Positions 7,643-32,702 of a stretch of DNA of 64,000 nt are shown here, piece after piece. The DNA lies in the NCBI RefSeq assembly GCF_011745625.1, contig NW_027191464.1:62001-126000 (forward strand), read 5' to 3'. Positions within the stretch are counted from its first letter, which is position 1, and each line of letters starts with the position of its first letter. The DNA is from Cladosporium halotolerans (taxonomy: Eukaryota). Below the pieces are notes generated by a model. The model had not been told where the DNA came from. It worked only from the letters and a program-made list of their open reading frames with translations, and searched no databases. The position numbers and the translations under genes were made by a program.

Positions 7643-8616
7643 GCTGGTGTGTGGTCTAGTTGCCTGGAATTGACTGCGATACTCTCCTGTCGCAACTTCC
7701 TAAACGGGAATTGAGTGAGGTTGAACGTTTACCAGCAGCCTGCTGCTGAGCTAGCATGTCCAGGCCGTGATCTGGGCGAGCTGCGGTTTGGTGGAGCAGC
7801 TGTGGAGAGGATACGCGGAAGGTGACCCGAGGCCGCTCGGCAAGCGCCAACGCCGTTGTCGGCTGGGACGTGGCGGGTCGACTCCAACGGCGGAAGTGCC
7901 CTCTCGACGGTATCGGCTATTGCGGTCGATGATGGCCATGGGGATGCGTCCCGGTTGTGAGTCGTCACCCCATCCGGTGGTAGGCGGACAAGACTCAGGT
8001 GGACCCTTCTCGGATGGAGGTGTCATGGAGCCGGGAAACACCAGACGACATCAATTGATTGAAAATTGATTAATCGATCAATCAACCTTTGCCTCTCGCA
8101 ATTGCCGACCTCGCTGGCCCGAGCCCCCTGCTTTTTGAACGGCAGTCCAGGTCATCACTCTGCTAGTTCCCGTTTCATCAACACGCCGTCGAGTCGACAG
8201 CCCGCTTCCATCAGATCCCATCGATCCCATCAAATTCCACCGTTTCCTCCCATCAGTCCGGCTTCTGCAAGGTACACGCTCACGCGCGCCAAACAAGCTC
8301 CCGATTACACACCCAGATTGTCGTCATCCTGGCTTCCACACTGCCCCGCTTTCGCTCCCTCGTCCGCTGTAGCCGATCTCTCTCGGCTGCCGTCAAGCTG
8401 GCTCCACGGGAACGCCTGAGTCTCATCTCGAGACATTTCAATACCAATGCTCACGTTCCGCTGAACACACCTTTCTCCATCGAGCGCAACAGCAGTCCCG
8501 GCGACGACATTGAGCATTCTTCCCTACCTAAAGCACAGAGTCGCCAATTCGGTACCCAAACAACCCCACCAAAGAAAGAAGAGCCCGCCCAAGAAGAGAA
8601 GAAAGAGCCAGTCAAG

Positions 8617-9768
8617 ATGTCTAGCCAGCCCCCTCACCCTACTGTGCTCATCCCGGGCCCGATCGAGTACGACGATGAGGTTCTCAAGGCCATGAGCCAC
8701 TACAGCGAGCCGCACACCGCCGTGCCCTTCGTCAAGGTCTTCGGCGAGACCCTCACCATGCTCCGCCAGCTCTTCCAGACCACCAACCCCAACAGCCAGC
8801 CTTTCGTTATCAACGGTTCTGGAACTCTTGGATGGGACCAGGTCGCTGCCAACCTGGCTGAGAGGGGCGATGACGTCCTCGTTCTTCACACGGGCTACTT
8901 CGCCGACAGCTTCGCAGACTGCTTCGAGACTTATGGCGTCAAGGCAACTCAGCTGAAGGCCCCCATTGGCGACCGTCCTCAATTGGACGAGGTTGAGAAG
9001 GCTCTCAAGGAGAAGGAATACAAGATCCTGACCGTCACGCACACCGACACCAGCACTGGCGTGCTGTCCGAGATCAAGGCCCTCAGCGAGCTCGTGCACC
9101 GCGTGTCGCCCAACACACTCGTGGTCGTCGACGGCGTCTGCTCCGTTGCCTGCGAGGAGATCCGCTTCGACGACTGGGGCATCGACGTCGTCCTCACCGC
9201 GACCCAGAAGGCCATCGGCGTGCCCGCCGGCCTCAGCATCCTGATGGCCAGCGAGCGCGCCATCGAGCGCTTCCGCGCGCGCTCCACGCCGCCGCCCAGC
9301 TACTACGGCAGCTGGAAGAACTGGCTGCCCGTCATGCAGAACTACGAGGCCAAGAAGCCGTCCTACTTCGCCACGCCGTCGCCCCAGCTCATCCACGCCC
9401 TGCACACGTCGCTCACGCAGATCCTCAGCCGGCCGTTGGAGGAGCGCTTCAGGCTGCACAAGGAGGCTAGCCAGAAGGTGAAGAAGGCCGTTGCTGAGCT
9501 CGGCCTCAAGCAGCTGCCCACAAAGCCCGAGAACGAGGCTAACGGCATGACCGCTATCTACTTGCCCGAGGGTCTGACGCCGCCCGAGATCCTGCCCAAG
9601 CTGATCGCAAAGGGCATCATCTTCGCCGGTGGTCTTCACAAGGAGATCGCTACCAAGTACATCCGTTTCGGCCACATGGGCGTCTCCGTCACCGACCCCA
9701 AGAGGGATGACCTGGACAAGGCCATCAAGGCTCTCAAGGAGGGTCTGGCTGAGGTCTCGCAGAAGTAG
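8617..9768 (+). CDS. AGX1: Alanine:glyoxylate aminotransferase (class V PLP); probable non-AUG N-terminal extension from 8341/8398 (see findings)
   Basis: LIPGPIE, GSGTLGWD, VVVDGVCSV, TATQKAIGVPAGL (PLP Lys), YFATP, IRFGHMG; intronless with strong codon bias. Confidence 0.92.
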   Translation: MSSQPPHPTVLIPGPIEYDDEVLKAMSHYSEPHTAVPFVKVFGETLTMLRQLFQTTNPNSQPFVINGSGTLGWDQVAANLAERGDDVLVLHTGYFADSFADCFETYGVKATQLKAPIGDRPQLDEVEKALKEKEYKILTVTHTDTSTGVLSEIKALSELVHRVSPNTLVVVDGVCSVACEEIRFDDWGIDVVLTATQKAIGVPAGLSILMASERAIERFRARSTPPPSYYGSWKNWLPVMQNYEAKKPSYFATPSPQLIHALHTSLTQILSRPLEERFRLHKEASQKVKKAVAELGLKQLPTKPENEANGMTAIYLPEGLTPPEILPKLIAKGIIFAGGLHKEIATKYIRFGHMGVSVTDPKRDDLDKAIKALKEGLAEVSQK

Positions 9769-12135: not shown

Positions 12136-12972
12136 CTACAGCTTCTTAACCAATCTCCCAACTACGTGAGGCAACGATTCGAAATATCCCTCCCGGCTGT
12201 CGTAATCGATCTCAACAGACTCCCATTCTCCAGCGTTCTTGATGACATCCCCGGTATTCCTCAGCAAATGGCAATTGTCGAGCAACACGCCCCAAGGCAC
12301 GTTATTGACAGCTTCACCCTGACAGTCAGCAACAATCCAACCGCCCCAAACCAGCCGACAACACTCACCCTGCCACGCCCTCACCGCCCCATGCCTCGAA
12401 GCAACATGTTCATAAACCAACCACTGGCCCCCGGGCTTCAAACTCTCATACAAAGCCCTCACCACCCCCTCCGCCCCCGCCCCAACACTACACAGCACAT
12501 GCACCGTGACAACCGTGTCCACGCTCCCCCTCTGCACCCCCACGCTCTCCAGCTCCTGCGCAAACGCCTGCACAGGCTCATACACGCCGGCCAGCCCCGC
12601 GCGCCGCGCCGCCTCACGCAACTGCGCGTGGAAGCGCGCGTTCGGCTCCACGCCGATGATTTTGGTGATCTTGTCGCGCGCGCGCGCGAGCTCGGGCATC
12701 CAGACGCCGCTCGCGGGGCCGATGTCGAGGACGACGCCGTGCGAGCGCGCGAGCAGGGGCGCGACGCGGGGCGCGAAGAGCGGTTTGCTCGCGCGGCCGA
12801 ACCAGAACCAGAAGTGCTGGAACCAGGCGTGTTTGAGGGCGGGCCAGGAGGGGGTGGAGGGCTTGGGCTGCGTGAGGAAGGTGTAGGGGAGCGTGAAGAG
12901 GGTGAAAGGGAGGGTGAGGAGTGAGGTGAGGAGGACGAGGGGTGGGAGCAGGAGGTCGAGGGGACCGAGCAT
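12136..12972 (-). CDS. SAM-dependent methyltransferase, METTL7/Methyltransf_11-like, hydrophobic N-terminus
   Basis: GVVLDIGPASG motif I, IIGVEPN, DTVVTVHVLCSV, LKPGGQWLVYEHV; probable short intron starting GTGAGT at 12368. Confidence 0.85.
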   Translation of the reverse strand: MLGPLDLLLPPLVLLTSLLTLPFTLFTLPYTFLTQPKPSTPSWPALKHAWFQHFWFWFGRASKPLFAPRVAPLLARSHGVVLDIGPASGVWMPELARARDKITKIIGVEPNARFHAQLREAARRAGLAGVYEPVQAFAQELESVGVQRGSVDTVVTVHVLCSVGAGAEGVVRALYESLKPGGQWLVYEHVASRHGAVRAWQGECCRLVWGGWIVADCQGEAVNNVPWGVLLDNCHLLRNTGDVIKNAGEWESVEIDYDSREGYFESLPHVVGRLVKKL

Positions 12973-14935
12973 GGTGGGTTTGAATTATATGGTGGAGGGA
13001 ACTTTTGGGGATTTCGAGATATGAGCGGGCATGAAGTTGAAGGAGAAGGTGGCTCGGGTTTGGAAGGGCTGGTATGCGGGCTGATGATAATGAGGTCGTC
13101 GTGGTAGCTGTGGTTCCATGGTCAGGCCACTGCTCTGTTGCCCTGCGCTTGTTGGTCCAGAGCAAGCCATGGGAAGCTTGATGGGTCTTAAATCGAGATC
13201 TCTCGTTGCTGAAGTGTGGCTTTGCTCATTGAGATACTACTCCCTCGTCTCATCATTGAGCGTGTCAGGACACTAACCATAATGACAAGCAGTCTGAGCG
13301 CACGAGCACGTGACCACGACTGTCATTCAACAGCAAAATCACCTGACCGCTCCCCTCTTCACAAGCACGAGCGACAACGCCTCACCAAACGTCCAAACAA
13401 TCGTACCATCCTCAGACCTGACGATTAGGAGGCGTGATTAAAGCTCGCACGCCGCTGGGGCCAGCAGCCGGAGCGTTGATCTGATCTGCGCGGAAAGCGC
13501 GTCTTGGCTTCTCCGTCCGCGCGGAAAGTGAGATCCCGCTTTTGTTGATTGACGACACGGCGCTTATCATTGATGTGTCTCGATTCCCCAACGTCTGCGA
13601 CCGTAGGGGAGCCGGATCACGTGCGCGGTTGCTGTTGTTGGATGGGAGGTCCTGGTGTTGGGGAGAGGATGGAGATGTACATGTAGTGACGTGGCGGTAT
13701 GGGATGCGATCAATGGTGATGGTGCTTCGATGGAGCTGCACGCGGCCGACGGAACTATTGTACGGTCTTAATAGGAGCATTTGTATTATTGTTCAGCCAT
13801 GGTTACGCGACAGGAGCCATGTTGTAAAGTGCAAGCCTTCATCGACGCGATCTCTTCAACATGACACTGGCGGTGTCTGACGTGATGCAGCTTGCTTCAC
13901 GAGGGCATGGAATCTTGCAGCTTGCGCGACGCTTATCGCATGAGTTAAGACATGGAGGCAGGGTGACGTACGGCATCTTGATACCAGCCTGAGGCTCAAC
14001 GATAAGGATAGAGTGCAGACGCGACGATGATGTTGTTGCAAGATAGGACGGCAACGGACGTTGACAAGTTGAGGCTGTCGCTGACGTTGCCATGCTCCAG
14101 ATATAGCCATACCGACTGCGGCTGGGTCTGCGAGGCTGCGTGTTCCGGAGGAGAACCGCAGCGCGCGATGAGTTGACCGCGCGCCGTGCATCGCGGCTCA
14201 CACGGGTTCCTGGCTGAAGGAAAGGCAGAGGCGTGGGGAAAGACATGGGATGAATGGCAGGGTGAGACAGGTGACTTTGCGACGCCCTCGCCGGCGGACG
14301 GGCTATTGCAGGCGATTGATATCAACGGAGCAGCGGATCTGCATGCCAGCGTATCAAGCAGCGCAGACCGACAGCTTGGTTCGCGTGCTGCGGGCGGGGA
14401 GCAAGGCAGGCGAGTTTGAGTGCGAGGGTGCAGTCAACGGACGCTCGCACCTCAGGCGGGCTGCAGATGCGGTGCGGCGTGCCAGCTGGAACCGCCGGGC
14501 GGCTTCTCGACTCCGGCGCGGAGACCCAATGGCCGTGTGGCACTAGCGCCATGGGGGGCCAGGGAGCCAGGTTGGGTGTGGTGGGTGTGTTGGGTGGTGA
14601 CAACGCCCCCAGCGCGCGGTGCGACTCTCACACCAGGCGCACGTCGGTGCACCGCAGCCCTCCACGCCTGCTGATGCGATCGTGCGGTGAGCACCGCCGG
14701 AATGCGTAAGCCACTGCCCTACCTTAAGTACCACTCTCGCACCCCTCCCTCCACCGCCCGCGCTTCCTTCCGCCCTTTCCAGTCTCGTGCCACCCTTAAA
14801 GCTATCACCTGAAGAGCTCTGCATTGAGCTTGTTGTGAACTCAAATCGCGCTATCTATATCTCCTTCAACCACACCTGCTTCGTGCCATACCATTTCGAC
14901 CATCAACACACCTCAACACACCTCAAACCACCGCC

Positions 14936-16006: not shown

Positions 16007-17740
16007 CTAGTAAGTATACCTAAAGTCCCTGTTCTCTCTATCAGTGACATCAGCAGAATCCAGCTCCGCCAAAACCGCCCCATCAACGACCGGCTTTCCA
16101 TACACACGGTCCCGCCGCCCGTTCTCATACACGCAATACGCGTAGTGCAGCGCCCCCGACGCCGCCATGATCGCGAACGCGCAGATCATCGCGCCGATTC
16201 CGAGCGGGTAGTGCGGCGCCTGGGAGCGCAGGAAGAACTGCGGGCCGATGATGTTCCCGATCGCTGGACGGTATCTCGTGTCAGTCTATCAACTCGTCCG
16301 TAGTGGATTGGGAGACGCACCGTAGACGACCGCAATCGACACGCCCATGAAGCTCTTTTTCGTCCCGCCCGCCATGTTCGACGAGCACAGGCTCAGCATG
16401 AAAATCCACGGCACGTTGTAGAAGCCCATGATGTAGACGCCCGCGAGCGACGCCGCGCGCTGGCTCTCGACGTCCAGAGCGTGCACCATGATCGCGCCCG
16501 CCATGCCGACCAGCGCCGAGAGCACCCAGAAGACGCAGCGCACGTTGGGCACCTTGAGCGAGATGGCGGACAGCAGGGCGGCGGCGAGCATGGCGACGGC
16601 GGCTTGGGGCGTCGCCATGAGGACGGTTTTGGTGCGGCTGAAGCCGTAGCCGGAGATGATGAGGGGGTTGAAGTTGGTTATGCCCGCGTTGGCGATGGCG
16701 TAGCCCAGCGCGTTGGCCCAGATCAGGTAGGCGTTGGGGTCGCGGAGGGTTTCGTGGATTTGGGCGATTTTGAAGGTCTGGGAGGGGGGGAAGGTGTTAG
16801 TTAGTTGACTGGGGAGTGGGGGGCTTGGTTGGGATGGACTTTTTGGGTTTCGACGCCGGTTTGGTTGGATGCTAGGCGGATCACGGCGAGGTGCTTCTCG
16901 CGTTTGCTGAAGAACCAGGCTTTGGATGGCGAGTCGGGCAGGCCGAAGAAGACCAGGATGCCGGTGAGGATTGTGACCGCTCCGTAGATGAGGAAGATGT
17001 ACTAAGCGATCGTCAATCAGAAATCACTTAAGATGGCCTTTGGCAAGGAGGAATCACCTTCCATGTCGATAGTGAACCACCAATCTTCCCAATCGCGTAG
17101 GACAAGATTCCACCAAACACACCAGCAAACGTGTTATACCAAAAAGCCGTCCTCAGCGGCTGTTCCTCTCGTCGATACCACGCCGAGTTGACCAAGATCA
17201 TGCAGGGCAAAACGGCGGCCTCAAAGACACCCAAGAAGAATCTCACAGTAGCCAGGCCAGCAAAGTTGTGGCAGACGGCCATGAGGCACAGCGCCACGCC
17301 CCATAGAGACAGGCAGACGCCGATGTACTTCCCGACCGGCACTTTGGTCATCAGCCAGATGTTCGGGAACTCCATGGCCAGGTAGCCGAAGTAGAAGATG
17401 CTGCCCAGCCAGCTGTAGTCTTGCCCTTTCAGGTTGGTGTCTTCTTGGATACCGAAGACTGCGGCGTAGCCTAGGGCGTTCTATTGGGACGGTTAGCAAT
17501 GATTGTGATGAGTCTTCTGCTCTTTTTGAGTTGACGTACCTTGTCCAGAAATGCCAGTGTCATTGCCAGAACGATCAGAGGCATGACGACGAGGTCAGTC
17601 TTGAGAAGAATCCGCTTGGCTTCCGCCTTCGTGATTTCATGCGTTACCCCAAGCACATCAGACTCCTCAACGGCGCTTGACGTGACCTGTTCGACATCCT
17701 TTGCAATTGTTGCATCGTCAAGACTCTTTTCTGAAGGCAT
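16007..17740 (-). CDS. MFS transporter, Dal5/allantoate (anion:cation symporter) family
   Basis: KTDLVVMP...LAFLDK, YSWLGSIFYFGYL, VRFFLGVFEA, WYRREEQPLR, NMAGGTKK, GNIIGPQFF, C-terminal DVTDRENRDFRY; about 5 exons. Confidence 0.92.
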
Positions 17741-18243: not shown

Positions 18244-19403
18244 TCAAGAGTGCAACTGAAGATGAGCCAAGTTACGAGGCGCCTCCACCTCAGCCAGAAT
18301 CTCCTCGCGCGATCTCTCCACGTCCTTCCGAACAAAGTCAGTATAGATCTCTCGGATCTTCGCAGTGATGGCGCCACATTGTCCATCGCCAATCGCACGT
18401 CCGTCAACTTCCACCACATGAATCTGGGATGGAAATGTGCCGGTACAGAACGCCTCATCGGCACCGTAGACTTCCGTCAGGCTAAAGTCAAGCTCACGGA
18501 CGGGGATGCCGTACGACCGGCACGCGTCGATGGTCTTTTGCCGCGTGATGCCTTGCATCTGGTTGTCCTTCGTAGGAGCCCAGACCTCATCTCCACGCAC
18601 GATGAAGAAGTTGACCGAGTTGCATGTCTTGACGAAACCTCTCTGGTCCAGCATCAGCGCCTCGTCGACCTGCATGACGTTTGCGCTGATGCAAGCCTGC
18701 ACGTCCGTGGCCTTGGAGATGTGGTTCCACTGCTCGTCTTTGACGTCTGGCGAACCGCGACGGACCCAGGTCGTCGCGAGACGGAGGCCTCGTGTCTTGA
18801 CCGAGGGGTTGACGGCTTTGATCTCCGGGATGATCACGATCAGTGGCAGGCCCACGTTGACGTTGGGGTTCTGGTAGGGCGTTGATTTGAGCCCTCGGCT
18901 GACGACCAGGCGGATGTGGACGTGTGGCTCGTCGTTCATGTCGTTGACGTCGAGTGTCTGGTGGATGAGGCCCAGAAGTCCGCCTTTCGTGATGCCAAGA
19001 TCCATGAACATTGCCTTCGCTGCTTGGAATAGACGGTTGATGTGCTCTCGGGCGAACTGCACGCGCCCTTTGTTTGCTCTGATACCTTCCTTGAGGTTGG
19101 TCAGTAAACTGAGTTGGAATTGATGCGAGTGCTAATTGATACTGCTTACCCAGAGGCCGTCTCCAATAAGGAAGTTGGAGTCGAAGACAGAGACGACGGC
19201 TTGTGCTCGAGGCACCAAGTTGAAACAGCCCGTCACACCGTCGCGCATGCCAATCTAGATCCATCACATCAGTAAGTGATACTCAATGTCTGTTCACGAG
19301 GACTTACGACGATAGAGTCATTCTTGACGTTCGGAATGACATCGTGTGTCGAGCTCTTGCTAGGCTCATGGCTCTGTTTTTCGGGGACAGATGACTTTGT
19401 CAT
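18244..19403 (-). CDS. Fold-type IV PLP enzyme (BCAT/D-amino-acid aminotransferase-like), atypical active-site residues, about 348 aa
   Basis: Exons 19403-19308, 19254-19150, 19089-18244 (all phase 0). Motifs AVVSVFDSNFLIGDGLWEGIR, EHINRLF, IRLVVSRG, DEALMLD, MQGITR, ADEAFCTGT, VDGRAIGDG. Confidence 0.88.
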
Positions 19404-19581
19404 GTTGGATCAGGCCGGAGTAAGTCGCACAGCAGTGGCGTTACAGAAGACCGAAGCGCGATAAGAAACATCTTGATGCGGAATGCCTATATACATATTT
19501 CCACCATTCGCGATGGAGCAGAAACGAGTCGCCCCGAATGGCCGCCAGGGATGGGGCCCCAACTTCCAGTGTGGAGCCAAA

Positions 19582-19740: not shown

Positions 19741-21994
19741 ATGGAATCGGCAATCGCCTCGGTACCATCCGTGGTGAAAGCGTGCGGTAGATGTCAGGCG
19801 CGGAAAGTCAAGGTAGGTTCGCAACAAGGCGTGAACACAACATGAGCTAGGCATCGAGACGAGTTTACCAGCGGCTGATAATACTGTGTCGTCGCTAGTG
19901 CGACCTGACATTACCTCGATGTACTCCATGCGTCAAGCACAATGAGGCCTGCAACATCTCAGATCGCGTGGCGTATTCTTACACCGTCGTCGCGAGGCTC
20001 GAGGCCGAGGTGAAAGACTTGCGTGCTCAACTAGATAATGCAACAATAAGCAACAATGTCACTCTGCAGAACCAGGATCATCTCGTAAGACCGCCGATTT
20101 TCTGCAAACATTCCATGCTGACCATAGTGCGCTTGCTGTACAAGGCCCAGGCAAGTGACATTCAAGCCGAAGAAATAGGGGTTCTGGCCATTGGAGGACG
20201 CGGCCAGCAGGCTGACGGGACTTATGGTATTGCTCGTCGATCGCTGTGTTCAGTTTCACGTTTGCTGACAGGAATTTACCGGCAGTGGGGAGTGCTGCGG
20301 GATCAAGCTTCACACGAATGTTCTTGAGACAGCTCGCGTTTGATGGTGAATGGCTGTCAGAACCCTCAAATGATTGCCTGGAACCTTGCCCAACCAAAAG
20401 TCTAGCCTCACTTCCGCCTTATGCCACAGCTCTTTATCTGTTACGGCAGTACATAGCCAAGACGCATGTGTGGTGGCCCTTACTCCATCTACCTACGCTA
20501 CGGCAGGATTTGAAGGATGTTTATCAGAATCCAAGAAAATGCACCGACGCCCAGAAGTTCACCGTTTTCGCAATTCTCGCACTTTCCAGTGCTGAATCAC
20601 AAGGCGAGTCAGTTTACGGGCAGCTCCTGGATCTCAACGAGCCGTCAGCCTACTTCCGGACGAGTCTGCGATATATGGATTCGCTTTATGACCATCCAAA
20701 GCATGTGTTTCGAGTGCAAGCGCTGCTTCTCCTTGAAATCTGGATGCTGGACTCTAAGGACAGCGGAGATTGCAACGACCTTTGGCATCTGTCGCGCTAC
20801 GCCATGTCAGCTGCCATCCAAGCCGGGCTACATCGCCACAACGCCAGCTGGAAGTTCTCCACCGAAGATTTGGAAATCAGAAATAGGACCTGGTGGTGCA
20901 CTTATAACCTCGAAAGGTAAGCACGACGATTCTGGCAGATCATCCGGGCCTTATTGACTGAAGCGATCGCCCACAGGCAAGTCGCAGTGTTGACTGGAAG
21001 GGTCTTGTCTGTCAGAGATCACGCAGTACATGCTGAACTACCAAGAAAACTCGCTCTTGATAATTTAGACTCTCAAGAGGCCAAAGCTGCAACGTCGTAC
21101 TTCAATCACGACGTCACTCCGTTCCGACTCATGACCAGACTGCGTCAGATCTCCGGACGAATCCTCGAGTCGGTCTATGTAGCACGCAGGGCAGACGGCA
21201 CCACTTATGACACATCATTCCAGCAAATCTGCACAATGTCAGATGAAATCCGGACTCTGCTCATGGCCTGGAAGATCGACTTCCGTGAAGCGCGCCTCGG
21301 ACAGTGTAAGGAATCTTCCGTCCTGAACATGGAGTACTGCAACCTACAGCTCCTGCTCAATCGACCAAATCCTACATTTCTGCTTCCAACGCAAGCCATG
21401 CTGGATGTCTGTTCCGAAAACGTGTCGGAAGCCATACGCGAATGGTCGAATGTCTCCTCACATTTTGGGATTGGTGCCATCTGCCGAGGCTATCGGCAAT
21501 ACCACAGTCTTCTTTTAGTCGGTCTTGCTGGGCTTTATCACGACTGGTATGTTGAGTACTAAGCCCTGACCCCCAATTTCGACTGCTAACCCTTCAGGCA
21601 CGCGCAAACGATCGGCGGGGACGCGGGCAATGGAGCTCCGTCAATGCTCTGTCGCCATCAATCAGACACTCAGACCTGCCTGGATCTGCTCCGGGAAGCC
21701 GCACGTCAAATGGAAATCCCTGGGATTGCAAGATACGCCACACTCTTCGCGGCTATTCGAGCAAGGGTCTATGCGACTAGACCAGATGCAAACGACCAAG
21801 TAACAGCGATGGATGTGGCGTCAACTTACGGCGAGTACTCGGGGATGGGCAATGGAAATCTCGGCGGGCTGCCGCAACATCAGGATCTAGAGGCGTATCG
21901 CGACCATCTGTCCAGCTTTTTCGACTACGACGTCCTTGCTAAAGACGAGGTCCTCTCCGCATGGTATGATGCCATCATGAGAGACCTCGATTGA
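19741..21994 (+). CDS. Zn2Cys6 transcription factor with fungal-specific TF domain (Ppr1/UaY-like)
   Basis: ACGRCQARKVK|CDLTLPRCTPCVKHNEAC split by an intron, coiled-coil VARLEAEV, AEEIGVLAIGG...GSAAGSSF, AGLHR...RNRTWWCTYNLERQVAVLTGR; multi-exon. Confidence 0.9.
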
Positions 21995-26800: not shown

Positions 26801-27031
26801 CTGTGATCGGCAGTCTCGAGGTAGCAACGATAATTCACAGCAGTCTGGGAGAAGGCACGGCCCTGAAAATCTCCAAAAGTGTCTCTGAACGGTGCTGCAT
26901 GATGCAATGGCAAAAGATCGGATAAACCCATCTACCAAGCTGGACTGCTCGCCGTGTGTATAAAGAGTCCACAACTGCCGATCAAGCAATGCCTCCTGCT
27001 TGCTAAATATCTTGTCAATCTTGACTTCAGT

Positions 27032-28331
27032 ATGTATAAGCAGCTCTTTGCGGCGCTAAGCCTTCCAGCCTTGGTCCTCTCGGCACCGGGTCACAGCCCT
27101 CCCAGCTACGACTCTGACGGTTGCACCAAGACCTGCATCGTCGACTCAAGCGCCAACGACACTTCCTATGCAATTGAAGATGCCTTTCATGAGTGTGGTC
27201 ATGAAACCGGCGAGAACAGGGGCAAGGTCATCTTCAAGAAAGACGAGACTTACAACGTCCGCCGTGTCATGAACACGACTGGCTTGACCAACGTTGACGT
27301 CGATATTCACGGCACTCTTCTTTGGGACACCAACATTGATTACTGGCTCAACCACTCCCTGCCCATCGGCTTCCAGAACCAATCCACTGCTTGGATCTTT
27401 GGTGGCGAGAACGTTCACTGGAACGGTTTCGGCTATGGCACTCTTGACGGCAACGGTCAGGTGTGGTACGACTTCATCAATGGCACAAACAACTACCCGG
27501 GCCGCCCGCACCAGATCTCCTTTGAAGGCATGAAGGACAGTATCATCGAGAAAACACGCTTCGTCCAGTCTCAGATGTGGACCATGACAGTGATCCATTC
27601 CGAAAATGTTCTGTTGGAAGACATGTATGTCAACAGCACCGACTCGAAGCAGGAAGTTGGCTTTCTCTTCTCTCAACACGGATGGCGCGGACGTGATCTA
27701 CTCCAACAACATCACCTTCAGGAACTGGGTTGTGGATTGTGGTGATGACAACATCTCCACCAAGGCGAACGCTACGAACATCCTCATCGAGAACCAAGAC
27801 TGGTACACCGGTCTTGGCTTCGCCATGGGCAGTATTGGTCAGTACGAGGGCGAGTTTGAGTACGTCGAGAACGTCACCGTCCGTAACGTCACTGTCCACG
27901 ACCGCATGAGATATGCCGCCTACTTCAAGACTTGGACTGGTGTCAGCCGCGGCTATCCCCCGAACGGCGGTGGCGGCGGCCTCGGCTACGCTGCCAACAT
28001 CACCATGTCGGACTTCAAGCTGGACAACACTTCTGGCATCTTCGCCATCACCCAGTGCACCAGCTACAACAGCGCCACTGGCGAGTGCAACACTAGCGAG
28101 TTCAACATCCACGACATCACCCTCGAGAACTGGTCCGGTACCTCTACCAGCAACGTCCTTGCTGAGCTGCAGTGCAGTGGTGCCAGCCCGTGCTATGGCA
28201 TCAAGTACGATAACGTGTCCGTTGAGATTCCGAGCAACAACACGATGGCTAGCCACTACCTCTGTGGAAATGTCACCAACCCTATTGGGTTTGAGTGCAC
28301 TGATGGGCTTTGGGAGGAGAACAACAGGTGA
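27032..28331 (+). pseudogene. Secreted GH28 (RgxB/exo-rhamnogalacturonase-like) interrupted by a frameshift at about 27661 (pseudogene or sequence error)
   Basis: Signal peptide MYKQLFAALSLPALVLSAP; GTLDGNGQVWY and GRP in one frame; NTDG, DD, KTW..YPPNGGGGGLG in the next frame. Confidence 0.75.
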
Positions 28332-29241: not shown

Positions 29242-30949
29242 TCAAGCAACCTCCACGCGGGAGACGTGTGCGTCCTTCGGCTTATCCCGATCATCTTCAT
29301 AATCACCATCCTCGACCACCTTTGAGGCGTAGTCAACTTCAGGCCTCACGAATCCAAAAAGTTGATCCATCTGGTCCATACGCACGCCCTTGGTCTCGTG
29401 GATGAAGAACCAAGCATAGATCGAAGCGAGGATGAGCATGCTGGCGAAGAAGATGTACACGCCGTATCCCATACCTAAATGTGTGTCAGCAAGGTCACCA
29501 TCACTTCAGAAATCGTTTGGAACGTACCCGAGAACATTGAAGGCAACGCCTTGGTCACAACAAAAGTCCAGAGCCAGACGCTCATACCAGCCCAAGGCCC
29601 GGAGATGCTGCGGAGAGTGCTGGGGAAGATCTCAGCCGAGATGATCCAGGGCAATCCATTGGCGCCGAAAGACCAGGCTGCACCGAAGACCATGATCGCT
29701 GCTGTGGCTGCACGGCCGCCTGCAATAGTACTCGCGCTCTGGGGCTCTCCCACTTGAGGACTGCCGACCGCAATGTAGCCTGCCAGGTAGTACTGACAGA
29801 CAGCGCAAGTCAGTGAAGAGACAATCCAGGGCATCTTACGGCCAAAAGTGTCAATAAAGAAGGTGAAGAAGATGACCGAGCCGCCGGCTTTGATGATACC
29901 ATAGATACCAGTCCAGAACGTAACATCGTCAAGTCCAATTGATCTGAAGATGGTCGGCGAGTAATAATTGATTGCCGCTGCGCCACTCCAGCCTTGCCAC
30001 ATGAACATAACGAACACAAGAAGGAAGCGGTTGCGCATGCCCTTCATGCAAGACTCGCGCAGTGCACCTTTGATGAACGACCCGAAAGAAGGGCGCGCAC
30101 CACCAGTCACAGCCCGCTCACCGTCGATCTGAGATTGTATGTAGGCGACGTCTTGCGCAATGTAGGTATGATCCGCTGGAAGATTTCTGTAATAGCTGAG
30201 GACGTTGTAGGCATGGTCCTCCCGTCCGCGTTTCAACAGCCACGTCGGTGACTCGCGAAGGAAGGGTATGCCAAGAGCGAGGAGACCGGCTGGGATGAGC
30301 TGCACGCCCATGGGGATGCGCCAAGCTACTGATTTACTGGCGTCAATGTTGTGCACGATACCATAGTTGATCCAGAAGCCGATAACCGCGCCAATCTGGT
30401 AGGACGATTCAAAGAAGCCGGTGCATCGTCCGCGGATAGCTGGAGGAGAGATCTCCGCAATGTATATGGGGCAAACGGCTGCAATCCCGCCCACACCAAG
30501 CCCAGTAAGAAGTCGACCAGAGTACATCAGTCCGAGTTGGTCGGTAGCTACCGTGCAAAGGACAGCGCCAATGGCAAATATGGCGTCTGAGATGATGACC
30601 GTCCATTTCCGTCCAAGCTGCTCAAGAGAGGCAAACATGAAAAGTGCACCGAAGAATCCTCCAGCAGAATCTGGTGGGAAGTGAGTTTACTGAGACGCTG
30701 CTAATGAAGGTCAGACTCACAAATGCTGGTGAGGTTGCTGTTGACGGCATCTTGCTCGGATGAACTCATCACGTCCAGCCCGAAGTCACGTTTGAAAGAA
30801 GCCTGCGTGATAGTGGTCCCAATGAAGGCGCTGTCGTAGCCGTATGCCATCACACCCATCGAAATGATGAGTGCAGAGGCATACACCTTCCAGTTGTATA
30901 CCTCTGGCGGTGTTGGCCGGTCTTCTGGCGCACGCGCAAAACCCGTCAT
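29242..30949 (-). CDS. MFS sugar-porter family transporter, quinate-permease-like
   Basis: EDRPTPPEVYNWKVY, YGYDSAFIGTTI, GRLLTGLGVG, PIYIAEISPPAIRGR, ESPTWL, AINYYSP, PWIISAEIFP, HETKG; 3 exons. Confidence 0.92.
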
Positions 30950-31646
30950 GATGTGAGAGGTTCCGAGGACCCGAACGATACAGTATAGGCAAAGAGACGA
31001 AAACGATCAGGTCTAGACGTACACTTCAGCAGCAGATAACTCGAGCTGGTCGTCGGGCTCTGCCTGGAAGACGCCGTGATCGGCCATTGGCGCTAACAGA
31101 CACGCGATAACCCATGGGGCACCGCGGGAATGACTTCAACCTTAGCATCTAGGCTTGAGGACGGACATTGACCGAGGATGTTACACAGCGTCGCAACATC
31201 GCTGCAAAGATGCACCGCCCAGTACCTACTCGAACCAGGCGCATGACTCGAGCTTCATGGGGCTCCGGACTTGGCGGGGTCGATCTCCAGACGGAGCGCA
31301 TGGCTAAACCGCGGCCGCATACAGATCCAATTGCCGATGCATTGCAGCTTCGTGATTTCGGCGACCTACGGAGATTCCTGAGAGGCCGGCCCTCCCGATA
31401 GTCCTGTTTGACGGTTCATGTCGCGATGTCGGAGACGTCGTTGAACATTTCTTGGTGGAGTATGCAGGCATACCCACAAGCAACGAGGCCGGCAGATACC
31501 ACCCGGACCTAAAGACTCACATGTAATGCTCTATTCTGCTCATTTCTAACCTGGGATTGCTCTCACAGTCAACTCACCTTGAACCGACAGGCACATCGAC
31601 GTCTCATTCGACCACTGCGCAGAAGTCTTGCCTGAACCTCGAAAAC

Positions 31647-32702
31647 ATGCCGTCGAACGAGTCTGGCATTACCACCGGCGCTGCAGCATCCGCCATGCCA
31701 TCACTTCAGGGCATTCACGTTCCCTCTTTGACTTTCTTCAGCGAATCACCTAAGCAAGAGATCGACTGGCCGACGCAAACCAAACACTTACAGTTCCTCA
31801 TTTCCTCTGGCATCCATGGCGTAGTCCTCGCAGGCACGAACGGCGAGGCCATCACACTTAGTCGATCCGAGAAAGCAGATCTGGTTCGCGCCACGAGAAA
31901 AACAGCAAACGATCTGGGCAAGAATAGCTTCCCCATTAGCCTGGGCACCAGTGGAACGAGCACCCGAGACGTGATTGACGACTGCGTTACCGCGAAGGAG
32001 GCAGGGGCCGACTTTGCGCTCGTCCTCGTACCCAGCTTTTTCCACTTTGCCATGACCAAGGATGCCATCTGCGACTTCTTCGAGGAGGTTGCTGACGCCA
32101 GCCCGGTGCCTGTTGTAATCTACAACTTCCCTGGCGTGGCTGCGGGATTGAATGTTGATTCGACAATGCTTGACCGCTTGGCAAAGCACGAGAACATCGT
32201 CGGTGTCAAGGTAGGTCAATCTGGAGAAGACCAGCATCCGCTAAACGAGAAGCTGACAAGATCGATCTAGCTCACCTGCGGTGGCATTGCGAAAGTCACT
32301 CGCCTTTCAGCGACTTACCCGACATCCAAATTCTGCGCTCTTGCTGGGCAAAGCGACTGGCTCATTCCAGCGCTCTCGGTCGGCGGGACAGGTTGCATTA
32401 CAGGAGTTGGAAATCTCTACCCTCGCTCATGTGTAGAGGTCTACAATCTGTATCTTGCAGGGAAGCTGGAGGCCGCGCAAAAGCTGCAGTACACGTTGGC
32501 GATATCGGAACTAGGATTCGGTGATGGCGGTATCAACGGGACGAAGTGGGTCGTCGGAGAGCTCCTGAACTATCCTCAGGGATCAAGAGACTGCCGGAGG
32601 CCATACCCGAAGTTTGCCAGCAAAGACAAGCAAGACTGGATCTTGCAGCAGGTAAGGGCGCTTGAGGCGGATGAAGCAAGGCTGCTCAAGCTCTCTAAAT
32701 AG
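31647..32702 (+). CDS. DHDPS/NAL-family class I aldolase (HOGA/2-keto-3-deoxy sugar-acid aldolase-like)
   Basis: GIHVPSLTFF, GTNGEA, YNFPGVAAG, NIVGVK|LTCGGIAKV (Schiff-base Lys); intron 32211-32270. Confidence 0.9.

Follow-up and report, generated by a model that had tools for sequence, protein, structure and literature searches.

The locus described here raises the question of what a PLP-type protein of fold IV is still able to do once the lysine that should hold its cofactor has been replaced. The gene comes from Cladosporium halotolerans, and all positions refer to the window, that is, the whole stretch of 64,000 nucleotides that was analysed. Our analysis favors, with a probability of roughly 0.55, a functional lysine-less fold-IV protein of the N-type (defined below), which is not a conventional transaminase and is the lone enzyme of a small gene cluster.

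The gene lies on the minus strand (19403-18244), consists of three exons and encodes a spliced product of 348 amino acids (Table 1), the N-terminus of which is a 67-residue extension. Both introns are absent from contigs of two runs of one study (X2 and X3), as exact skips of 60 and 53 bases whose ends read CT..AC on the plus strand, while contigs of X1 and X5 retain both. The spliced contigs suggest that the gene is expressed, on the presumption that the X2 and X3 runs are RNA (no run carrying the gene is recorded as RNA). The position of intron 1 is common to a distant fungal locus with 68% identity (L089), and that of intron 2 to the loci L081-L083 and L085-L088 with 70-88% identity; intron 2 is missing at its position in L089, L090 and L096, and no match to exon 2 was found in L084 in this comparison of fungal loci.

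Table 1. Features of the fold-IV gene and of its two neighbors (window positions).
Feature	Position	Strand	Remarks
MFS transporter gene	16010..17722	-	~490 aa, several introns, approximate ends; PF07690; mapped with orthologues P0419 and P0420
Exon 3 (P0001)	18244..19089	-	281 codons + TGA stop; bulk of the PF01063 domain
Thr222-Cys223-Asn224 codons	18619..18627	-	stand where canonical enzymes have Glu-Gly-Ser
Thr222 codon	18625-18627	-	aligned with E of 'vsEGSGdNiF'
Lys193 codon	18712-18714	-	column of the BCAT 'N-Y' Tyr; Arg in the N/R/S subclade
Asn189 codon	18724-18726	-	Schiff-base Lys column; equals N174 of 7z79
Lys184 (K184) codon	18739-18741	-	five residues ahead of Asn189; invariant only within the fungal clade
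His125-Ile-Arg127	18910..18918	-	Tyr-Ile-Arg in BCAT; Arg kept
Arg86 codon, EHxxRL motif	19033..19035	-	phosphate-binding Arg column; kept
Intron 2	19090..19149	-	60 nt, GTAAGC..CAAG, phase 0, GDGLW/EGIRA boundary
Exon 2	19150..19254	-	35 codons, IGMRDG...GDGLW
Intron 1	19255..19307	-	53 nt, GTAAGT..CTAG
Exon 1	19308..19403	-	ATG 19403-19401; 32 codons; junction backed by contigs skipping 19255-19307
Zn2Cys6 / Fungal_trans transcription factor gene	19741..21994	+	divergent; first intron 19813-19898; approximate 3' end; PF04082, E 1.1e-16

The affiliation of the protein to fold IV is clear. The product of exon 3 matches the Pfam family PF01063 (E 5.5e-31, 108.6 bits against a cut-off of 28.5), and its residues 1-254 find the nearest solved structure in 7z79 from Variovorax paradoxus (E 1.2e-51). 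The AF2 model of an 83% identical orthologue (P0005, pLDDT 91.7) is best matched by 7z79 and 9j32 (target TM 0.93-0.94, rmsd 1.4-1.9 A), and at least the 250 top PDB matches of this model are fold-IV enzymes. All 17 matching NCBIfam models of BCAT, DAAT and ADCL stay under their curated cut-offs, the best being PRK08320 with 181.9 against 363, where the scores are somewhat lowered because the exon-3 product, 281 of the 348 residues, served as the query. The fungal (R)-selective amine transaminases are distant matches only (E 1e-8 to 1e-14), and the canonical Lys and Glu of these fold-IV enzymes are missing here. The first-pass annotation had described a fold-IV protein without either residue, had judged an ordinary BCAT or DAAT unlikely and had pointed to a poorly characterised, mainly bacterial 'NSHSKLN-type' subfamily with the same changes; the Pfam match, the cut-offs, the alignment with 7z79, the bacterial loci and the tree bear this out. 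Named orthologues, which come from Sordariomycetes, Dothideomycetes, Eurotiomycetes, Xylona and a basidiomycete yeast, are 66-83% identical and metagenome sequences up to 97%, so purifying selection on the protein is very strong and extends over several classes of fungi.

The active site has been changed jointly at three places. In the HMMER alignments the N of QWNHISK pairs with the K of 'niKslNYl' in 5mqz, the BCAT of Archaeoglobus fulgidus, and with the N of 'rlNshsrln' in 7z79. In comparison with BCAT and DAAT, the Schiff-base Lys has become Asn189, the following Tyr has become Lys193, and Glu-Gly-Ser has become Thr222-Cys-Asn. The Asn at the usual Lys position, the Lys four residues on, with the very codon that had been given for it, and the exchange of Glu for Thr had all been read correctly in the first-pass annotation. 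We call N-type those proteins that have Asn at the Lys column, Ser at +3, Lys or Arg at +4, and Thr or Ser followed by Cys-Asn at the Glu motif; N189, S192, K193 and T222-C223-N224 place the fungal protein among them. Counted over the Lys, Tyr and Glu columns, 204 rows read N/K/T, 56 read N/R/S, 15 read K/Y/E as in canonical enzymes and about 22 read H/x/E. Lys occupies the Lys193 column in every one of the N/K/T rows, whereas the N/R/S sister subclade, to which 7z79 belongs, has Arg there together with Ser for Thr at the Glu column. The Cys-Asn after that column is nearly invariant; the K184 column holds Q, L or F in the rest of the clade. The Asn, the Ser at +3, the Lys at +4, the Thr and the next Asn are present in 121/121 sequences of the fungal list (unfiltered alignment), and the N-type pattern, Asn included, is present in 79/79 bacterial loci. 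A pattern fixed to this extent is the result of neither chance nor decay.

The rest of the pocket has been preserved. The columns of the phosphate cup, namely Arg86, Gly-Ile-Thr249-Arg250 and Thr283-Gly-Thr285, are retained, and the GIT-R and T-G-T motifs are likewise found in 121/121 fungal sequences; we take these residues to be phosphate-binding from the structures of BCAT and DAAT, the equivalence here being one of alignment columns. Arg127, presumably the residue that binds the substrate carboxylate by analogy to BCAT, is retained as well. The fungal protein shares with canonical BCATs (5mqz: E 6.9e-39, 34% identity when aligned by structure) the fold, the domain order, EHxxRL, G-I-T-R, T-G-T and the Arg of Y-I-R, and differs from them by the three changes above and by His for the Tyr of Y-I-R. 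The canonical Glu pairs with the pyridine nitrogen of PLP and favors transamination. Binding of PLP or PMP by the fungal protein is a prediction that we infer from the retained columns.

The closest system with a solved structure is 7z79 (2022), which has the fold and the clade of the fungal protein and shares with it the Asn at the Schiff-base column, the Ser at +3 and the lost Glu, followed in 7z79 by Cys-Asn-Ser; it is of the N/R/S type, with Arg at +4 and Ser at the Glu column, while the fungal protein is N/K/T. The entry 9j32 (2025), titled 'mutant N174K', differs from it in one residue, the Asn. We know of no function for 7z79, and no relevant paper on 7z79, 9j32 or lysine-less fold-IV proteins was found in the open-access literature; the accessible part of PMC9309667 has nothing on lysine-less members of the class.

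The family to which the fungal protein belongs is tied to a sulfotransferase. All seven long relatives tested carry PF19798 (Sulfotransfer_5) besides PF01063, and among the long eukaryotic relatives of the N-type the fusion is found in 5/5, one of them (P0134) from the early-diverging fungus Gonapodya. The N-type fusions (P0122, P0124, P0126, P0130 and P0134) are the nearest relatives outside Dikarya (46-53% identity) and have the same N/K/T residues, whereas the Dikarya protein lacks the sulfotransferase domain and has a short N-terminal extension only. The gene neighborhoods of the bacterial homologues proved informative too: a PF19798 gene adjoins the fold-IV gene in 38 of 79 loci, 35 times with a shared strand, and this adjacency applies to 28/35 loci of the N/K/T type and to 9/43 of the N/R/S type. 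Of the N/R/S loci, 21/43 stand behind an amino-acid-type ABC importer without an adjacent sulfotransferase, and a further 13/43 have neither neighbor. A third conserved neighbor was not seen in the 38 sulfotransferase-linked loci. A table row in PMC11625862 names PF19798; searches of the open-access literature for sulfotransferase together with 'aminotransferase class IV' gave nothing relevant and found no mention of the loci At5g27410 or At3g05190.

The tree, rooted on canonical BCATs and built after removal of 18 rows from the 67-row set for a careful search, arranges these forms in a consistent way. The fungal protein falls inside the N-type clade (100/99), which is separate from the four BCAT outgroup rows and from the H-type clade (99/97, or 100/99 in the group table). 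The H-type fusions (P0163, P0179, P0195), for which 'plant BCAL1/2-like' is a tentative label, carry a His in the Lys column but retain the Glu, where the fungal protein has Asn and Thr; the Ilyonectria orthologue P0013 is named 'Branched-chain-amino-acid aminotransferase-like protein 2' by NCBI. The eight Dikarya rows form one clade (100/100), nested in the eukaryotic clade of sulfotransferase-fused forms (100/100), with 95/89 and 97/90 at the next two forks. Within Dikarya the basidiomycete yeast branches first, then Xylona, then Penicillium, as in the species tree, and the innermost five rows mix three classes at supports of 32-42. Nesting among the fusions means that Dikarya lost the sulfotransferase domain: judged from this topology, the fungal protein is a descendant of a eukaryotic fusion with a PAPS-type Sulfotransfer_5 domain. 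Nesting and domain loss together point to vertical descent of the fungal gene and not to a recent transfer. Placement within the bacterial N/K/T diversity (94/86) holds for the entire eukaryotic clade and for no smaller group inside it, so that clade may go back to an ancient bacterial source.

Having lost its fused partner, the fungal gene is found in other company. An MFS transporter gene and the gene of a Zn2Cys6 regulator stand on either side of it (Table 1), and one or both flank the fold-IV gene in 8/17 fungal metagenome loci, in three arrangements. As L081/L082, L089/L090 and L093/L094 are near-duplicate pairs, these eight loci amount to about five independent contexts. The orthologue of the regulator adjoins the fold-IV gene in L081/L082 and L089/L090, and in the gene model P0024 it is fused in; the order and orientation of the three genes vary between loci. 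In Phialemonium (804/805) and Cirrosporium (525/526) the locus tags of the MFS and fold-IV genes follow directly on one another, and many species have both genes on one contig; in Talaromyces verruculosus their tags are 27 apart. There was no MFS match within 2.6 kb downstream in L081, and neither neighbor was present in L088 (6 kb). By gene content, the transporter-enzyme-regulator neighborhood is conserved between distant fungi despite rearrangement, though it is not universal. The sources name the transporter 'MFS' or 'allantoate permease' only, an automatic label that names no substrate; it may be an importer of sulfonates or sulfate esters, related to yeast Soa1. The sulfur-regulator motif ATGRYRYCAT, of the CYS3/MetR type, is absent from both promoters and does not occur near the three genes; its two matches in the window, against 0.89 expected, are both elsewhere.

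Taken together, the fungal protein would act on its own, as the sole enzyme of a small transporter-enzyme-regulator cluster. Its substrate would be an imported anionic alpha-carboxylate, an amino-acid-like compound, and the phosphate-bearing cofactor, PLP or PMP, would be held without a covalent link. With its neutral Thr next to the pyridine nitrogen, the site would have a layout typical of PLP enzymes of elimination and replacement, not of transaminases, and Lys193 and His125 are candidates for acid/base or anion-binding residues. Precedents exist for parts of this. The PMP-dependent sugar dehydratases ColD and E1 (fold type I) carry a His where the Schiff-base Lys would be and are still catalytic; they are lysine-less examples nearest in spirit to the H-type clade, and their fold type and substrates differ. 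The structural matches include the DAAT mutants 1g2w (E177S) and 5daa (E177K), in which the Glu at the pyridine nitrogen is replaced by Ser or Lys. Mutants of DAAT Glu177 reportedly have an altered reaction specificity, but they are engineered single mutants that retain the Schiff-base Lys, unlike the fungal protein. A single-enzyme 'cluster', on the other hand, may reflect shared regulation for another reason.

One could argue that a protein in which the Schiff-base Lys, the Glu of the pyridine nitrogen and the Tyr column are all substituted is no enzyme at all. It would then be a ligand-binding or regulatory protein that has kept fold and pocket, for example a sensor or an accessory subunit. 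The tie to a sulfotransferase in bacteria and early eukaryotes fits this, since the sulfotransferase is possibly the only catalyst there, and so does the name 'aminotransferase-like protein', not enzyme, given to 7z79 by its depositors. However, the substituted residues are invariant and co-vary between the N/K/T and N/R/S types, with the next Cys-Asn nearly invariant, which gives the site the look of a re-tooled and not of an abandoned one. Additionally, Dikarya lack the fused partner and yet keep the protein, at 66-97% identity, beside a transporter and a regulator, a place that in fungal clusters is usually occupied by an enzyme. We therefore consider a pseudoenzyme unlikely.

It could also be that the protein is still one half of a module of sulfotransferase and lysine-less fold-IV domain, and that its Sulfotransfer_5 partner is encoded elsewhere in the fungal genome. 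The pairing is indeed the strongest context signal of the N/K/T type, with 28 of the 35 bacterial loci and all five N-type fusions, and the linked bacterial loci offer no other conserved gene. However, the fungal gene has neither a PF19798 fusion nor a PF19798 gene alongside: tblastn with five eukaryotic PF19798 domains found no such sequence in the 64-kb window (best E 0.07). No Dikarya name appears among the best 120 of 3205 short relatives of the sulfotransferase part of P0126; the names among these, and those in an Atlas look-up for Sulfotransfer_5, are all bacterial, which is weak evidence since most rows are unnamed. As the fungal gene has also gained different, conserved neighbors, a distant partner seems rather doubtful to us.

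A more specific and decidedly speculative proposal sees in the N-type proteins PLP lyases without the lysine, which would expel an activated leaving group, notably a sulfate ester, from an amino-acid-like substrate. The attached sulfotransferase of bacteria, algae and early fungi would add the sulfate from PAPS, and its elimination would fall to the fold-IV part, much as activation by a sulfotransferase precedes elimination in polyketide olefin synthases. Dikarya would have dropped the sulfotransferase; with an anion-type MFS importer and a dedicated regulator, they would use the enzyme to import and cleave amino acids that plants or soil supply already sulfated or otherwise beta-substituted. 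The loss of the lysine would shield the enzyme from the aminoacrylate product, and a neutral Thr or Ser next to the pyridine nitrogen would bias the cofactor towards elimination.

The first-pass annotation had spoken of a displaced catalytic Lys. On such a reading Lys193 would be the cofactor lysine, either of a genuine PLP transaminase or of some other enzyme that works through a Schiff base. That a Lys is found at +4 was correct; the 204 N/K/T rows have it without exception, and the phosphate-cup columns are retained. Its column is that of a BCAT Tyr which touches O3' of the cofactor; Lys193 should accordingly be near C4'. The catalytic role is what has become doubtful: the same column holds Arg, which is unable to form a Schiff base, in the 56 N/R/S rows including 7z79, so a role in charge or binding fits better. 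With the Glu that favors transamination also lost, and all transaminase models below their cut-offs, such an enzyme is highly unlikely.

Finally, the first-pass annotation had raised the possibility that the gene was acquired horizontally and gained two introns afterwards. A recent transfer of this kind, from bacteria into an ascomycete, finds some sympathy in a mostly bacterial family (at least 584 members confirmed among 601 candidate stretches from bacterial genomes) and in the position of the eukaryotic clade within it, but can hardly be upheld against a single Dikarya clade among eukaryotic fusions, its earliest branch a basidiomycete yeast, and against introns common to distant loci.

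The lysine-less fold-IV proteins are a large orphan family with a solved structure available: genes for them are carried by more than 580 genomes of bacterial species, and the sulfotransferase-fused form by algal, plant-like and early fungal lineages. New here are the adjacency of N/K/T genes and Sulfotransfer_5, the eukaryotic fusions, the loss of the domain in Dikarya and the clustering of the fungal gene with MFS and Zn2Cys6 genes. The finding also corrects the annotation of fungal genes, as the labels 'branched-chain amino acid aminotransferase' and 'D-alanine aminotransferase' which they carry in many genomes are very likely wrong. The fungal branch is the first context seen by us in which the protein stands alone with a transporter of its own and a pathway-specific regulator. 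Being stand-alone, strongly conserved and clustered in this way, it brings the question within reach of experiments in moulds with workable genetics, and the substrate of the fungal cluster, once found, should reveal the chemistry of the whole family.

On the evidence of alignment and phylogeny, the fold-IV protein of Cladosporium halotolerans has lost the canonical catalytic set, has kept the phosphate and carboxylate columns, and belongs to a lysine-less clade with Asn in place of the Schiff-base Lys (N-type; ultrafast bootstrap/SH-aLRT 100/99). Every search was made with the exon-3 product of the gene (P0001, 281 aa) or with stored orthologues. This product matches PF01063 in Pfam (E 5.5e-31); the 17 NCBIfam models for BCAT, DAAT and ADC-lyase that it also matches all score it under their curated cut-off. 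In HMMER alignments to solved structures, the Asn of QWNHISK stands where Archaeoglobus BCAT (5mqz) has its Schiff-base Lys, the Lys at +4 where BCATs have the 'N-Y' tyrosine, and the Thr of VKTCNSVNFF where they have the E-G-S Glu. The top match among solved structures is 7z79 (E 1.2e-51), a Variovorax paradoxus 'aminotransferase-like protein' which has Asn in the Schiff-base column too, and it is in this column that 9j32, titled 'mutant N174K', departs from it; the title implies that the depositors and our alignment put the missing lysine at the same place. The alignment with 5mqz and 7z79 confirms the first-pass annotation that the canonical Lys and Glu are missing, Asn189 and Thr222 standing in their columns. 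The AlphaFold2 model of a full-length orthologue (P0005, 83% identical to the fold-IV protein) is confident (pLDDT 91.7, pTM 0.88) and is closest to 7z79 and 9j32 (target TM 0.93-0.94), then to archaeal BCATs and DAATs.

Features of the window, and of one bacterial locus (L026), with their positions
Feature	Position	Strand	Remark
Class-V aminotransferase gene	8167-9768	+	alanine-glyoxylate type by appearance
SAM-dependent methyltransferase gene	12136-12984	-	
MFS transporter gene	about 16010-17722	-	directly downstream of fold-IV gene
Fold-IV gene, 3 exons	19403-19308, 19254-19150, 19089-18244	-	348 residues
Asn189 codon	18724-18726	-	Schiff-base Lys column
Lys193 codon	18712-18714	-	'N-Y' Tyr column
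Thr222 codon	18625-18627	-	E-G-S Glu column
Upstream part of spliced contig, run X2	19404-19501		
Zn2Cys6/Fungal_trans regulator gene	19741 to about 21994		divergent from fold-IV gene
GH28 polygalacturonase gene	26903-28331		
Sugar-type MFS transporter gene	29475-30686		
DHDPS-family gene	31527-32270		
MmgE/PrpD-family gene	L026:4218-5672		
Old-Yellow-Enzyme-type gene	L026:10228-11316		

Conservation was read from an alignment made without a motif filter (120 best relatives, 149 further representatives, P0122-P0270, and 79 bacterial ORFs). At the Lys/Tyr/Glu columns 204 rows carry N/K/T, the fungal protein among them, 56 carry N/R/S (including 7z79), 15 the canonical K/Y/E of BCAT and about 22 the H/x/E of an 'H-type' sister clade. 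The Asn, the Ser at +3, the Lys at +4, the Thr, the next Asn, G-I-T-R and T-G-T are found in 121/121 sequences of the fungal list. Retained too are the columns that align with the EHxxRL Arg, which binds phosphate in BCAT and DAAT, and with the Arg in Y-I-R; the Tyr of Y-I-R is His in both lysine-less clades. Among the bacterial loci (L001-L080), the residues at +4 and at the Glu column co-vary within the N-type clade, Lys with Thr and Arg with Ser. Judged from these columns, the changes are fixed in the family with no sign of decay, and the residues around the pyridine ring appear re-tooled in concert, with the phosphate and carboxylate sites intact. Loss of the canonical set could also leave a non-catalytic binding protein; beside such concerted change we regard this as rather unlikely.

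The 'H-type' sister clade (P0146, P0151, P0163, P0165, P0173, P0179, P0195; support 99/97, or 100/99 in the group table) has His at the Schiff-base column, retains the Glu (SETNATNIF), carries a Lys two residues upstream (DSKIHH; Arg in P0146) and also contains fusions to Sulfotransfer_5 (PF19798). Its His-for-Lys swap parallels the PMP-dependent sugar dehydratases, where His substitutes for the Schiff-base Lys.

The full-library search returned 9007 relatives at E <= 0.001 and 76 at E <= 1e-30. Orthologues with names (66-83% identity) come from many Pezizomycotina and one basidiomycete yeast, and unnamed metagenome sequences reach 97% identity. Several of the nearest relatives are 430-760 aa long; PF19798 precedes PF01063 in all seven long relatives tested, and the early-diverging fungus Gonapodya has one N-type fusion. 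In the careful tree (49 rows, left after removal of 18 from a 67-row quick tree, with which it agrees) all eukaryotic N-type rows form one group (100/100), as do the eight Dikarya rows (100/100), which lie inside the fusions, a nesting supported by 95/89 and 97/90 at the two following forks, with the basidiomycete yeast branching first among the Dikarya. The position of intron 1 recurs in one locus at 68% identity and that of intron 2 in loci at 70-88%. The nesting, the yeast branch and the common intron positions argue for vertical descent of the fungal gene from a eukaryotic fusion, followed by loss of the sulfotransferase domain; the horizontal origin with later intron gain that the first-pass annotation held possible is thus unsupported as a recent event. 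Since the eukaryotic clade as a whole falls within bacterial diversity (94/86), an ancient bacterial source is possible.

Among the matches listed in a scan across genomes of bacterial species, 584 of 601 candidate stretches were confirmed; 80 loci were retained, in 79 of which the fold-IV gene was found again when ORFs were clustered. A PF19798 gene adjoins it in 38 loci, on the same strand in 35, where stop and start often overlap; other loci have a polar-amino-acid-type ABC importer upstream (binding protein, two permeases, ATPase). Neighbours differ by type: the sulfotransferase is adjacent in 28 of 35 N/K/T loci (one of them with the ABC ATPase as well; 7 have neither), and the ABC ATPase in 21 of 43 N/R/S loci (sulfotransferase in 9, neither in 13). 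The single N/R/T locus has the sulfotransferase and no ABC ATPase. A third conserved gene was sought among the 38 sulfotransferase-linked loci and none was found. The ABC-linked locus of Pectobacterium polonicum (L026) has an oppositely oriented MmgE/PrpD-family gene within the transporter operon, an Old-Yellow-Enzyme-type flavoprotein downstream and a two-component system upstream, neighbours which may hint at the substrate class. Bacterial pairing and ancestral fusion might suggest that the fungal protein still works with an unlinked sulfotransferase; the window holds no PF19798-like sequence, and we consider this quite improbable.

Both introns of the fungal gene are short with canonical ends, and intron 2 must be spliced because it contains an in-frame stop. 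In contigs from two runs of one study both predicted introns (60 and 53 bases) are missing to the base, and contigs of two other runs retain them; the RNA label of the runs is a guess, but there is clearly a spliced form in a close relative. The spliced X2 contig implies a 5' untranslated region of at least about 98 nt and extends to a point no more than about 240 nt from the start codon of the regulator gene.

Across 17 metagenome loci from fungi, the regulator adjoins the fold-IV gene in L081/L082, the MFS gene does so in L085, L086 and L093/L094, and both flank it in L089/L090; gene order and orientation vary among these loci. The remaining nine are mostly fragments of 1-2.6 kb, and L088 (6 kb) has neither gene beside the fold-IV gene. 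In L087, L088, L092 and L097 the exon-3 product is matched by tblastn in two overlapping pieces, split near residues 71-75 or 153-158, which suggests that these metagenome contigs contain a frameshift, one more short intron or a misassembly. In many named species the fold-IV protein and an MFS protein share contigs, with consecutive locus tags in Phialemonium and Cirrosporium and tags 27 apart in Talaromyces verruculosus. A deposited 373-aa model from Colletotrichum spinosum (P0024; PF01063 + PF04082) joins a Fungal_trans regulator piece to the fold-IV protein; it is probably a mis-merged gene model, which makes the two genes neighbours there too. Retention of these neighbours despite rearrangement marks transporter, single enzyme and regulator as a putative functional cluster.

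Elsewhere in the window, GH28, sugar-type MFS and DHDPS-family genes lie close together and resemble a group for pectin/D-galacturonate utilisation, whose aldolase is of the DHDPS family. We saw no link of the class-V aminotransferase and methyltransferase genes to the fold-IV gene.

On the reading we favor, the fold-IV protein is an enzyme in its own right and no transaminase; it would act on an anionic amino-acid-like compound imported by the MFS transporter and would probably hold PLP or PMP without a covalent bond. Among fold-type II enzymes, elimination and replacement catalysts have a neutral hydroxyl residue facing the pyridine nitrogen, and such a role would fit here. A transaminase using the 'displaced catalytic Lys' of the first-pass annotation is very unlikely: Lys193 is indeed present four residues after the Asn, at the very codon given there, but a Schiff-base role is doubtful because the N/R/S subclade has Arg at the same column.

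Both the family and the absence of its lysine have been known since a 2022 structure, and our search of an open-access library found no paper on the family's function, the sulfotransferase link or the fungal branch. Here we have shown the origin in a sulfotransferase fusion, the conserved three-gene fungal neighbourhood and the spliced transcript form. Fungal genetics could reveal the function of the whole lysine-less family.
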